Position numbers and translations under genes: made by a program. This document shows positions 11,402 to 14,739 of a DNA stretch of 31,495 nt, piece by piece (positions within the stretch are counted from its first letter, which is position 1; every line of letters starts with the position of its first letter). This DNA comes from a virus. The stretch lies in the UHGV virus genome UHGV-0019118; one strand, 5' to 3'. Below the pieces are notes generated by a model, which saw nothing but the letters and a program-made list of their open reading frames with translations, was not told the origin of the DNA and did no database searches.

Positions 11402-12265
11402 ATGGAAGAATCTAAAAGAATACGCCAATTAAAAGAAAACCTCATAAAGGAACTACCTTTCTTTCCAAATGAAAAATCAATACGCACTGAACTAGAAAAT
11501 CAAAGTTTAAATGGGGTTTTAATCGCTTACCTCCACTGGAAAACAAGAATTGTGCCGACCCGCAGAAGGAGAGTTCATATATATCCAGAGGTAACGAGCG
11601 ATAAAAGATGGAAAGAACTAAAACTTGGTATTCATGGGTTACTGGATAAGGTCAGAAAAGGTGAAGACTTATACCCTCATCTTTCATTGCGCGCACATAA
11701 GTATGGCTACACTCCTGTTGAAAGAATTCGTAATGGAGATGCTGATTCATGGGAAGACAAAGATCAGTTATTAAATACGAAAGGTTTTCATCATTTTCAT
11801 TTGAGCATGAATATTCAAAGTACAGGCTTGGCCGAAAGGACAAATAATGTTCTTTTTGCCTTCGTTTCTCGCGACCAGTTTCATGCTGTGGGGATATTTG
11901 ATCATAGTGTATTTGATAAACCCGATAGTTTAAATGGCATGACTGAGGAACGTGAAAGAATGTGGACCCTGCATGAAAAATACATCACATTCGGAATGAA
12001 AGCTGGCACAGTGTATATAAACAATCTGATAACAGCATCCGGGCATCCTGTAAATCTTATCATGCTCGCCGATCGTTATGCTGCAATCATCCGAGAATAT
12101 GACCAGAAGGCGGAAGACAGAATTTTTGTAAATGAGCTTTATGCTCAAAGCCCACTTCCCTCTCCAGAAAGGTTTAAATTTGAGTGGCGCATAGAGGGTT
12201 TGGATCTTGTTCTTTTTGATAAAAAAAACAGAGTGGCCTTTAACGTCTACAAAGCTCACATTTAA
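11402..12265 (+). CDS. Hypothetical protein, AT-rich cargo gene (moron) between V and S
   Basis: 287-aa ORF on the strand opposite to all flanking late genes; visibly AT-rich; AGGA 7 nt upstream of ATG; TATAAT at about 11383-11388; strong hairpin directly downstream. Confidence 0.6.
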   Translation: MEESKRIRQLKENLIKELPFFPNEKSIRTELENQSLNGVLIAYLHWKTRIVPTRRRRVHIYPEVTSDKRWKELKLGIHGLLDKVRKGEDLYPHLSLRAHKYGYTPVERIRNGDADSWEDKDQLLNTKGFHHFHLSMNIQSTGLAERTNNVLFAFVSRDQFHAVGIFDHSVFDKPDSLNGMTEERERMWTLHEKYITFGMKAGTVYINNLITASGHPVNLIMLADRYAAIIREYDQKAEDRIFVNELYAQSPLPSPERFKFEWRIEGLDLVLFDKKNRVAFNVYKAHI

Positions 12266-12321: not shown

Positions 12322-12774
12322 TTATCTTAGGAAAAGATACTGTAAGACCACTTCCTCCATCAATGTCACTTCATCTTGGTTAAATCCGAGCAACGGGCGC
12401 GCCTCGTACTGCACATCGCGGCTGTTGCGGTTTGGCCGGTCTTTGAGGCCATACTGATGCACCCGCGCCATGCGCTGCACCCTGCCGGTAAACTCCACCA
12501 CAGCCGAACTGTCGCTGCCTTTGGCTTTCATAAAACGACTGGTGCGCAGTCTGGTGAACATCTCGCGCTTAATGCGGCCTTTCTTGCTCCGCACAGGCTG
12601 GCGCTTTCGCGCGGCATACGGGGCGCCGTCGGGTGCCTGCTGCCGCTTAATTCGCTGTTGCTGGCTGGCGCGCAGCTTTTTCGCAATCTCAGCCGCCATT
12701 TGACGACGCGCCGCCGGTGACAGGCTGGCAATCAGACCGGCAAGGCGCTCCTGCAGCACGGTTAACTCACTCAT
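12322..12774 (-). CDS. S: Tail completion / virion morphogenesis protein S
   Basis: 150 aa, same length as P2 gpS, between R and V. Confidence 0.75.
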   Translation of the reverse strand: MSELTVLQERLAGLIASLSPAARRQMAAEIAKKLRASQQQRIKRQQAPDGAPYAARKRQPVRSKKGRIKREMFTRLRTSRFMKAKGSDSSAVVEFTGRVQRMARVHQYGLKDRPNRNSRDVQYEARPLLGFNQDEVTLMEEVVLQYLFLR

Positions 12775-13234
12775 CCCACTTACTCACCAGCTCACCGTTA
12801 ACGTACAGCTCGACCGGGCGCGTCACCGGCTCAGGCAGCGACGGTTCCGGCGCATAGCTGACGTGCAGTGCGCCGTCGACCTCTTTGACGAGCGTGCGCT
12901 CGGTGAGTCTCAGGCTGATACTGATATCGAGCGAATCGTCGTTATTGATATCAATCATCCAGGTGAATCCTTTCTCCCGCCCGTCGTCGGTGGTCATAAT
13001 GTCCGGCTGATGTTCACGCAGCCACGCCTGCACCGGCACGAATATCAAATCGAGGTCGCCGGTGAAGTCAGTCACCACCACGTTAAGCACGTACACTTTT
13101 TCAAACGACAGCGAGCTCGCCAGTCGGGAATCCGTATGCCCGTTATCAGCGAACAGGCGCAGCATATCGGGATTATTTCGGAGCTGCGGCACGGCGTTAA
13201 TCAGCGCTTTGCGCAGGCTTTTGTGCTTCTGCAT
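12767..13234 (-). CDS. R: Tail completion protein R
   Basis: Sequence (SLRKALINAV...NPDMLRLFADNG...SLSFEK...VVTDFTGD...ELYVNGELVSKWDE) resembles P2 gpR; likely start is the ATG at 13232-13234 (the track ORF extends to 13279). Confidence 0.7.
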   Translation of the reverse strand: MQKHKSLRKALINAVPQLRNNPDMLRLFADNGHTDSRLASSLSFEKVYVLNVVVTDFTGDLDLIFVPVQAWLREHQPDIMTTDDGREKGFTWMIDINNDDSLDISISLRLTERTLVKEVDGALHVSYAPEPSLPEPVTRPVELYVNGELVSKWDE

Positions 13235-13487
13235 CGAGTTCATCCTGACAGTGTTTGACGGTTTTGACCTGCAGCGCACAGGCAGTCAGCGCGCCCTCAA
13301 GACGGCGAATATCCGCGCTCAGGTCACCATTTGTTTTCGGGTCACTTCCCGGCATCGGGCAAAGGCTCACCTTCGGGCATCCGTTGACCACAATCACCGG
13401 CGCTGGCGCAGGCGGGGCGGGTGTGCAGCCGACGCACAACATCAGGCAGAGCAGCGTTATACCAGCGGCGAAAGGCTTCATTTTCAT
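13197..13487 (-). CDS. lysC: Rz1-like outer-membrane lipoprotein spanin
   Basis: Starts inside lysB in another frame and runs past its stop; signal peptide with Cys-containing lipobox-like segment LMLCVGC followed by a Pro-rich stretch TPAPPAPAP. Confidence 0.55.
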   Translation of the reverse strand: MKMKPFAAGITLLCLMLCVGCTPAPPAPAPVIVVNGCPKVSLCPMPGSDPKTNGDLSADIRRLEGALTACALQVKTVKHCQDELDAEAQKPAQSAD

Positions 13488-13755
13488 TAAGTAACCTCGT
13501 TATCGTCTGCTCACGGCGGCTGGCTTCTGCGCTTGCCTTTGCGAGCTGTTCGCGCAGTGCCACCTGCGCGGATTCATTACGTCTGGCGAGCTGACCGGCA
13601 ACACTGAGCTGATTTTTCAGCATGCCAATCGTCGTCTTTTGCTCGCTCGCGACACGGTTTGCCGTCTCAAAGGAGCGGGATAAATTGCCGTTCTCATGAC
13701 GCAACCACAGCAGCCCGAGCACGGCCAGCACAAGCAGCGTTATCAGGACTTTCAT
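13342..13755 (-). CDS. lysB: Rz-like inner-membrane spanin
   Basis: Likely start MKVLITLLVLAVLGLLWL (N-terminal transmembrane helix) at the ATG at 13753-13755, overlapping the K stop as ATGA; coiled-coil-like remainder. Confidence 0.6.
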   Translation of the reverse strand: MKVLITLLVLAVLGLLWLRHENGNLSRSFETANRVASEQKTTIGMLKNQLSVAGQLARRNESAQVALREQLAKASAEASRREQTITRLLNENEAFRRWYNAALPDVVRRLHTRPACASAGDCGQRMPEGEPLPDAGK

Positions 13756-14249
13756 GCCACCACCCCGCCAGCCGTGCGCCAGACAGTGACCAGTTTTTCG
13801 AGGCTGTGCTCGCGCTGGCCGTAACCGGCACCCGGTAATGACGCCCAGATATTGCGACAACGGGAAACAGCACGCTCAATACGCCCCGCCCGGATATCAT
13901 CAATAGCGCCACGCTCCCGGATTAACTGGAGCGCGAGCTTGTCCTGCGACAGTGGGCTGAAATCAGGCAGTGAGAGCTGTTTTTTATAGTGCGGCCAGAA
14001 CAGATAAAGCTGCTGGTAACGCCCCGATGCCGTGGATTTCTCGCCACGGCGATTAAACACTTTCGGTGGTCGGCCATGTGCGAAAGGGTGGTCGCTGTAA
14101 TCGGTGAAAATCTCTGGCTTACCATCAAGGCCGGTGACAATGACGTCATAGCCACGGTTTTTCGTCAGCGGATGGTTCGCTGTTCCTTCGGAATACGCCA
14201 GCATGTCCAGAAAGGCGGCGATATTCTGGTGAGTATTAATGACCGGCAT
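13752..14249 (-). CDS. K: Endolysin (phage lysozyme)
   Basis: 166 aa from the ATG at 14247-14249 (MPVINTHQNIAAFLDMLAYSEGTANHP...); size and sequence resemble P2 gpK; the longer track ORF is an upstream extension. Confidence 0.8.
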   Translation of the reverse strand: MPVINTHQNIAAFLDMLAYSEGTANHPLTKNRGYDVIVTGLDGKPEIFTDYSDHPFAHGRPPKVFNRRGEKSTASGRYQQLYLFWPHYKKQLSLPDFSPLSQDKLALQLIRERGAIDDIRAGRIERAVSRCRNIWASLPGAGYGQREHSLEKLVTVWRTAGGVVA

Positions 14250-14532
14250 CGTCTTCCCCTTTCTGTGACTTAAAGCGGCGCTGTATGGCGATTTCCACCA
14301 CCTGATAACCGGCAATGCCGAGCATGGATCCAATCCCGCACACGGCAGGCAGTGACATATCAGGAAACTGCACCAGAACAACACCGGCGACCATCGAAAC
14401 GAAACCGCCGAGCAGCATGCGTCCGACAAACAGGCGCGGGGTAATGGGCTCACCACCCGCCAGCACTTTTCCGACAACAATCATCACGCCAATCACAAAC
14501 AGTGACAGGACGCCTTTTTCCCCTTCTGTCAT
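14236..14532 (-). CDS. Y: Holin
   Basis: 98 aa with hydrophobic segments and a charged C-terminus; directly upstream of the endolysin gene. Confidence 0.7.
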   Translation of the reverse strand: MTEGEKGVLSLFVIGVMIVVGKVLAGGEPITPRLFVGRMLLGGFVSMVAGVVLVQFPDMSLPAVCGIGSMLGIAGYQVVEIAIQRRFKSQKGEDDAGH

Positions 14533-14535
14533 GGT

Positions 14536-14739
14536 TTACTCCCAAAGGTTGATAGTTTCTGTTACGGGTGACGATGCCACGTCGGGCAGGTCAATCGCCG
14601 TGCCATGCGGCAGAATGACGCCCAGCTCAGACAGACCGGGATTAGCCTGCAGCACCGTCTCGACCACGCCCTCAGTGCGCCCGTAATACCGGGCGCAAAG
14701 CGCGTCGAGGGTGTCGCCCTGCATCGCGTAGACTTTCAT
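14536..14739 (-). CDS. X: Tail protein X (LysM-like)
   Basis: From the ATG at 14737-14739: MKVYAMQGDTLDALCARYYGRTEGVVETVLQANPGLSELG..., 67 aa, closely resembling P2 gpX. Confidence 0.75.
   Translation of the reverse strand: MKVYAMQGDTLDALCARYYGRTEGVVETVLQANPGLSELGVILPHGTAIDLPDVASSPVTETINLWE

Follow-up and report, generated by a model that had tools for sequence, protein, structure and literature searches.

Does a P2-like prophage that carries no lysA between its endolysin gene and lysB have an unusual lysis module? This question is raised by the virus genome UHGV-0019118, a stretch of 31,495 nucleotides (nt) that we refer to, in its full length, as the window. Here the holin gene Y, the endolysin gene K and the two spanin genes lysB and lysC form a compact lysis cassette. 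The original prediction on this DNA held that there is no room for an additional gene between K and lysB, and gave the P2 order as K-lysA-lysB. We found both statements to be correct. With high confidence, we identify it as a late-operon lysis cassette that is canonical for prophages of the phage-186 type (Eganvirus, Peduoviridae). Its layout is already known, as the 186 map has been in public annotation since 1998.

Y, K, lysB and lysC, together with the flanking genes X, R and S, all lie on the minus strand. Y (14236-14532, 98 amino acids (aa)) overlaps K (13752-14249, 165 aa) by 14 nt (14236-14249). K meets lysB (13342-13755, 137 aa) in an ATGA at 13755-13752, where the lysB start ATG (13755-13753) overlaps the K stop TGA (13754-13752), and because of this stop/start overlap no gene fits between the two. 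The lysC gene (13197-13487, 96 aa) is read in the +1 frame relative to lysB, starting 146 nt ahead of the lysB stop and ending 145 nt beyond it, 38 nt into R. R and S overlap by 8 nt. The coordinates agree with what had been described for Y/K, for K/lysB and for the passage of lysC beyond the lysB stop into the start of R. The GC content of the region is about 55–60%, and long alternate-frame open reading frames (ORFs) are abundant, so that ORF length is weak evidence for genes here. The genes are supported instead by family models and homology.

The region from X to S (2.55 kb) shows 93.1% nucleotide identity to phage 186 over 97% of its length. In 186 (U32222/NC_001317), the genes Orf24, P, Orf27, Orf28, N and O follow the same order as Y, K, lysB, lysC, R and S in the window, likewise without lysA. 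The lengths of the lysis genes and N (297, 498, 414, 291 and 468 nt) and the overlaps (14, 4, 146, 38 and 8 nt) are equal to those of the window, and within the cassette the two differ by point substitutions only. The annotation of U32222 describes Orf24 as the holin (P2 Y homolog), P as the endolysin and Orf27 as the P2 LysB homolog, and gives Orf28 homologs in P2 and HP1. At the protein level, the identity to 186 is 95.6–98% for Y, K, LysB and LysC, and 84.7–94.2% for X, R and S on either side. The nucleotide identity of the X–S region is 96.4% to Salmonella phage PHB48 and 92.7% to PSP3; 23 phage records, some of which are GenBank/RefSeq duplicates, are colinear with at least 80% of it. The same region is present at 99% identity in chromosomal prophages of E. 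coli. Over its full length, the window represents a genome of the 186-like (Eganvirus) type.

P2 (NC_001895) carries Y, K, lysA, lysB and lysC, whereas lysA is missing from the window. The identities of the P2 proteins to those of the window are 81.6% for Y, 94.5% for K, 61.7% for LysB and 74% for LysC, and P2 shares the 146-nt lysB/lysC, 38-nt lysC/R and 8-nt R/S overlaps. Its Y/K overlap is 1 nt rather than 14 nt, because P2 Y is 5 aa shorter. Aligning the lysis regions of the window, 186 and P2 with MAFFT revealed a single 443-column gap in the window and in 186, which contains all of lysA; it begins 4 nt ahead of the stop of P2 K and reaches the region of the lysB start. The site that corresponds to the extra block of P2 is the K/lysB ATGA junction (13752-13755, minus strand). 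In P2, these 443 nt encode LysA, a 141-aa antiholin with multiple transmembrane domains (TMDs). In the literature, LysA counts as an antiholin within the five-gene module Y, K, lysA, lysB and lysC (PMC3091744), and the P2 record annotates lysA as nonessential and affecting lysis timing (NC_001895). Searching the whole window with P2 LysA by tblastn, at E values up to 100, yielded no remnant or relocated copy; the best match (E=0.39) lies away from the cassette.

The 186-type arrangement has parallels elsewhere in the Peduoviridae. Homologs of LysA are present in 79 phage records including P2, nearly all of the genus Peduovirus, and those of LysC in 240 records. The endolysin gene is directly followed by lysB also in ENT90, ST79 and Cartapus. 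Whether a LysA-type gene is carried varies among P2-like phages, a known and ordinary polymorphism. The arrangement in the window does differ from that of P2, as had been noticed, but it is not unusual, since the proper reference here is 186 rather than P2, and the 186 map is identical in lengths and overlaps. We suggest that P2-like prophages be compared with both P2 and 186 before a missing lysA is called unusual. A further difference from P2 concerns the hairpin within lysC that is annotated there as a ‘putative transcription attenuator’ (GCTGGCAC-GCT-GTGCCAGC, P2 8399-8417), which is conserved in neither the window nor 186. At the equivalent site (window 13272-13290, minus strand), we observe a different, weaker pairing in the window and in 186.

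The four proteins of the cassette are identified by their families and nearest relatives. Y (186 Orf24) matches PF04550 (Phage holin family 2; P2 holin family, class I) with 141.6 bits (cutoff 25), over profile positions 1–86 of 86, and phrog_175 (holin) with E=8e-46. Its identity to the 186 holin is 98%, and that to P2 Y, for which the literature gives three TMDs (PMC3091744), is 81.6%. A simple Kyte-Doolittle scan of Y displays strong hydrophobic segments at residues ~4–31 and ~33–62.

K (186 P) has no match in the Pfam or NCBIfam searches, and its identity came from a PDB sequence search and from PHROGs. It aligns with the solved lambda lysozyme (PDB 1AM7, 3D3D) over residues 9–164 with E=2e-44. 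In this alignment Glu21 of K (YSEGT) falls on Glu19 of lambda R (WSEGT), which we take to be the catalytic residue. This alignment makes K a genuine homolog of lambda R, a soluble endolysin of the lambda-R/GH104 (glycoside hydrolase family 104) type. Its identity to P of 186 is 95.8% and that to K of P2 is 94.5%; in a prophage copy of the region (99.1% nucleotide identity) PGAP labels it ‘glycoside hydrolase family 104’. The Kyte-Doolittle scan returned no hydrophobic window for K at either threshold, so no N-terminal signal peptide or signal-anchor-release (SAR) segment is seen. In contrast, the SAR endolysin of phage Midge has a hydrophobic segment at residues 1–27.

LysB (186 Orf27) matches the equivalog model TIGR03495 with 169.8 bits against a cutoff of 92.75, and phrog_89 (Rz-like spanin); its identity is 95.6% to 186 Orf27 and 61.7% to P2 LysB. 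Scanning the whole protein, we found one hydrophobic segment, at residues 1–19 (mean Kyte-Doolittle value 2.15), and no other. LysC (186 Orf28) matches NF038368, ‘Rz1-like lysis system protein LysC’, with 129.5 bits against a cutoff of 27 in an alignment that begins at residue 4, and also PF23793; phrog_952 spans residues 36–96 only. LysC is 95.8% identical to its 186 counterpart and 74% to that of P2.

The N-terminus of the predicted LysC lipoprotein precursor reads MKMKPFAAGITLLCLMLCVGC followed by TPAPP. Its n-region has a net charge of +2, the h-region FAAGITLLCLML forms a 12-residue hydrophobic core, and a CVGC lipobox with Cys21 comes next. Since the +2 residue is Thr and not Asp, no inner-membrane retention signal is present. 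The predicted mature protein has 76 aa, 13% proline and four periplasmic cysteines. Three cysteines (C14, C18 and C21) lie in or beside the signal peptide (residues 14–21; window 13425-13446, minus strand). Aligning LysC of the window, 186, P2, ENT90, phiCTX, Burkholderia ST79, Klebsiella ST11-OXA245phi3.1 and Cartapus, we notice homology from residue 1, an invariant Cys21 and G or A at position -1 in all eight Peduoviridae. The Cys at -3 is common to the window, 186 and P2; the distant relatives have Leu there (LSGC, LAGC, LPAC). For P2 LysC, SpaninDB records the signal MRTKIFAAGTVLTCLMLCAG with the lipobox LCAG, LipoP cleavage sites at 20 and 17, and no Prosite match (PMC6139136 supplement).

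The reality of lysC as a gene is further reflected in its divergence from P2. The dual-coded lysB/lysC stretch shows the fewest differences (17.8%, versus 26–30% in the adjoining stretches), which fits a constraint acting on two frames. In the 5' part of lysB, the ungapped comparison of the window with P2 gives 46% differences, probably from an indel that puts the two out of register, and this value was not used. We considered lysC as a chance alternate-frame ORF and ruled this out by the NF038368 and PF23793 matches, the conservation of the N-terminus across genera and the low divergence of the dual-coded stretch.

Kongari et al. (2018; PMC6139136) distinguish three architectures of two-component spanins: that of lambda is embedded, that of P2 overlapped and that of T4 separated. 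In P2, lysC starts within lysB in the +1 frame and has its out-of-frame stop in R (Lynch et al., 2010). The original prediction spoke of an ‘embedded’ Rz1-like gene, but this is the wrong term, because lysC (end 13197) extends past the lysB stop (13342). LysB/LysC is of the ‘overlapped’ class, whose type example is P2 LysB/LysC. The PGAP note on lysC describes it likewise as ‘substantially overlapping although not fully embedded’. In SpaninDB, the 186-like PsP3 has the label ‘ovl’; the i-spanin measures 414 nt, the overlap 146 nt and the o-spanin 96 aa (76 aa when mature), all equal to the window.

Based on these families, we propose that the cassette would work by the three-step route to lysis that is usual for Gram-negative hosts; the membrane topologies, the lipidation, the order of events, the timing without an antiholin and the co-transcription are those that the relatives would lead us to expect. 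The cassette would be transcribed together with the late head and tail genes, and the short overlaps may couple translation from one gene to the next. Y, a P2-family holin, would build up in the inner membrane and form holes at a set time. K, a putative GH104 lytic transglycosylase with neither a signal nor a SAR segment, would then exit through the holes and cleave the glycan strands of the peptidoglycan. LysB would act as the inner-membrane spanin (i-spanin) with an N-terminal anchor, and LysC as the outer-membrane lipoprotein (o-spanin). After the loss of the wall, their complex would span the periplasm and disrupt the outer membrane.

Since no LysA-type antiholin is present, lysis timing in this scheme would rest on Y alone. 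An antiholin function might instead be hidden in the cassette, in an alternate-frame ORF within K or lysB, in a second start of Y, or in the longer acidic C-terminal tail of Y. Alternate-frame ORFs do exist on the minus strand (for instance 13694-13912 and 13922-14155), and Y of the 186 type exceeds its P2 counterpart by 5 residues and has a tail ending in ...SQKGEDDAGH. However, a region of this GC content would contain ORFs of this kind by chance, and the window holds no LysA-like sequence. Y also has no lambda-style dual start, because its next Met is residue 17, within the first hydrophobic segment. As lysA of P2 is annotated as nonessential, no replacement for the antiholin is required. 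We consider a hidden antiholin very unlikely, and retain a cassette of the 186 type in which Y would be the only timing protein.

Public records give the lysC ORF three different starts, yielding 96, 81 or 52 aa. The 96-aa form is found in 186, P2 and SpaninDB; the 81-aa form, starting MLCVGC, was called by PGAP in the prophage of E. coli PKF8 (99.1% identical over the compared region); and the 52-aa form, starting MPGSDP, appears in PHB48 and Midge. These short annotations (2498-2743 in our record L011, 3996-4154 in L005 and 2148-2306 in L004, which is Midge) are the same ORF as window 13197-13487 (minus strand). That one of them is the true product is highly improbable in our judgment, even though these calls stand in the records named and phrog_952 leaves out the first 35 residues. 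Neither short product could undergo export or lipidation, since five residues precede the lipobox Cys in the 81-aa form and a signal is entirely missing from the 52-aa form. The start codon at 13487 (ATG), on the other hand, is preceded at 6 nt by the Shine-Dalgarno sequence GAGGT, identical in P2; the NF038368 model reaches almost to this start; residues 1–21 align even in phiCTX and Burkholderia ST79; and the form curated by SpaninDB is the long one. From its sequence, a lipoprotein is possible only for the 96-aa form. Because only this call yields a lipoprotein, the short calls spread non-functional o-spanin models.

That the prophage bears a P2-type cassette with a recent deletion of lysA, and thus a decayed or defective lysis module, is extremely unlikely: P2 and 78 other phage records have a LysA homolog and the window lacks lysA at a clean junction, but the same ATGA junction stands in plaque-forming 186, PSP3, SEN1, BIS20 and PHB48, all reading frames are intact, ENT90, Cartapus and ST79 likewise pass from endolysin to lysB, and LysB, R and S are far nearer to 186 (95.6%, 94.2% and 84.7%) than to P2 (61.7%, 72.3% and 47.7%), which indicates lineage ancestry, not a fresh deletion.

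Several points weigh against the assignment of the window to a canonical 186-type cassette. The third transmembrane segment of Y (residues ~59–84) is only weakly hydrophobic in the simple scan. With its Cys at -3, the CVGC lipobox is slightly atypical, as in P2, and does not satisfy the PROSITE pattern for lipoproteins, so that we infer acylation at Cys21 from conservation and not from agreement with a rule. Our search of the open-access literature found no explicit statement that 186 lacks lysA, and for this we rely on the GenBank annotation. The functional steps are all attributed by homology and should be read accordingly as predictions; within the evidence gathered, we found nothing that contradicts the 186-type reading.

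The genes on both sides of the cassette agree with their 186 counterparts. Immediately upstream lies X (186 Orf23; 14536-14739, minus strand), a tail/baseplate protein X of 67 aa that matches PF05489 (E=3e-29) and is 89.6% identical in amino acid sequence to 186 Orf23. Downstream, R (186 N; 12767-13234, minus strand) is a tail completion protein of 155 aa matching PF06891 (E=3.7e-42). S (186 O; 12322-12774, minus strand), a tail completion/virion morphogenesis protein of 150 aa matching PF05069 and TIGR01635, is the last gene of the operon. Consensus scans of the cassette and its surroundings revealed no excess of internal promoters (one promoter-like site versus 3.2 in shuffles) or of terminators (five terminator-like sites versus 5.4 by chance).

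Outside the cassette, a 287-aa ORF on the plus strand (window 11402-12265) lies between S and the V homolog and runs antisense to the late genes. It has a GC content of 0.36–0.41, compared with about 0.6 in the flanks. At this site P2 has the nonessential orf30, whereas 186 has a 70-nt gap. The ORF has no match in Pfam, NCBIfam or PHROG, and none by tblastn in 50,697 phage records. In PADLOC, residues 23–169 give a partial match (E=2.3e-9) to PD-T4-7, a defence protein, and seven complete E. coli genomes carry the ORF as a ‘hypothetical protein’. It is probably a horizontally acquired moron of the defence type, in a hotspot of the P2 family. The cassette itself, as a textbook 186-type lysis module, is of very small biological significance.

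Comparison with other phages places the Y–K segment in a wider context. Midge (Escherichia) and EtG (Erwinia) have a 186-like backbone, with flanks 94–97% identical to the window (X on one side; lysB from nt 21, lysC, R and S on the other). In Midge, the place of window 14565-13736 (minus strand), a segment that comprises Y, K and lysB up to its nt 20, is taken by a class II holin, an endolysin of the SAR type and a LysA-like gene. The counterpart in the Midge record is 586-1767; one breakpoint falls where X ends and the other a short way into lysB. The Midge LysA-like protein has 143 aa and is 43% identical to P2 LysA, and the homologs in Midge and EtG are at about 40% identity. A P2-LysA-type protein thus accompanies canonical and pinholin/SAR lysis systems alike. 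In the Klebsiella phage ST11-OXA245phi3.1, an unrelated 127-aa membrane protein occupies the slot between endolysin and lysB. Taken together with the 186-type phages, these arrangements indicate that Y-K(-lysA) is an exchangeable module.

We speculate further, and only tentatively, that the endolysin/lysB junction of P2-like phages might be a recurrent insertion slot for antiholin-type proteins with multiple TMDs, one that is empty in the 186 type, where lysis would be timed by Y alone or by a feature not yet recognised, such as the acidic tail of Y. If this holds, closely related wild phages that differ in carrying lysA would offer a clean system for measuring the fitness contribution of a separate antiholin.

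The cassette follows the same logic as lambda S/R with Rz/Rz1, in which a holin and a soluble endolysin are joined by an i-spanin and a lipoprotein o-spanin in the +1 frame. The two systems differ as follows. The lambda holin belongs to another family than Y of the window, and the window has no dual-start antiholin. Lambda Rz1 lies wholly inside Rz, the embedded architecture, whereas lysC of the window runs on into R, the overlapped one.

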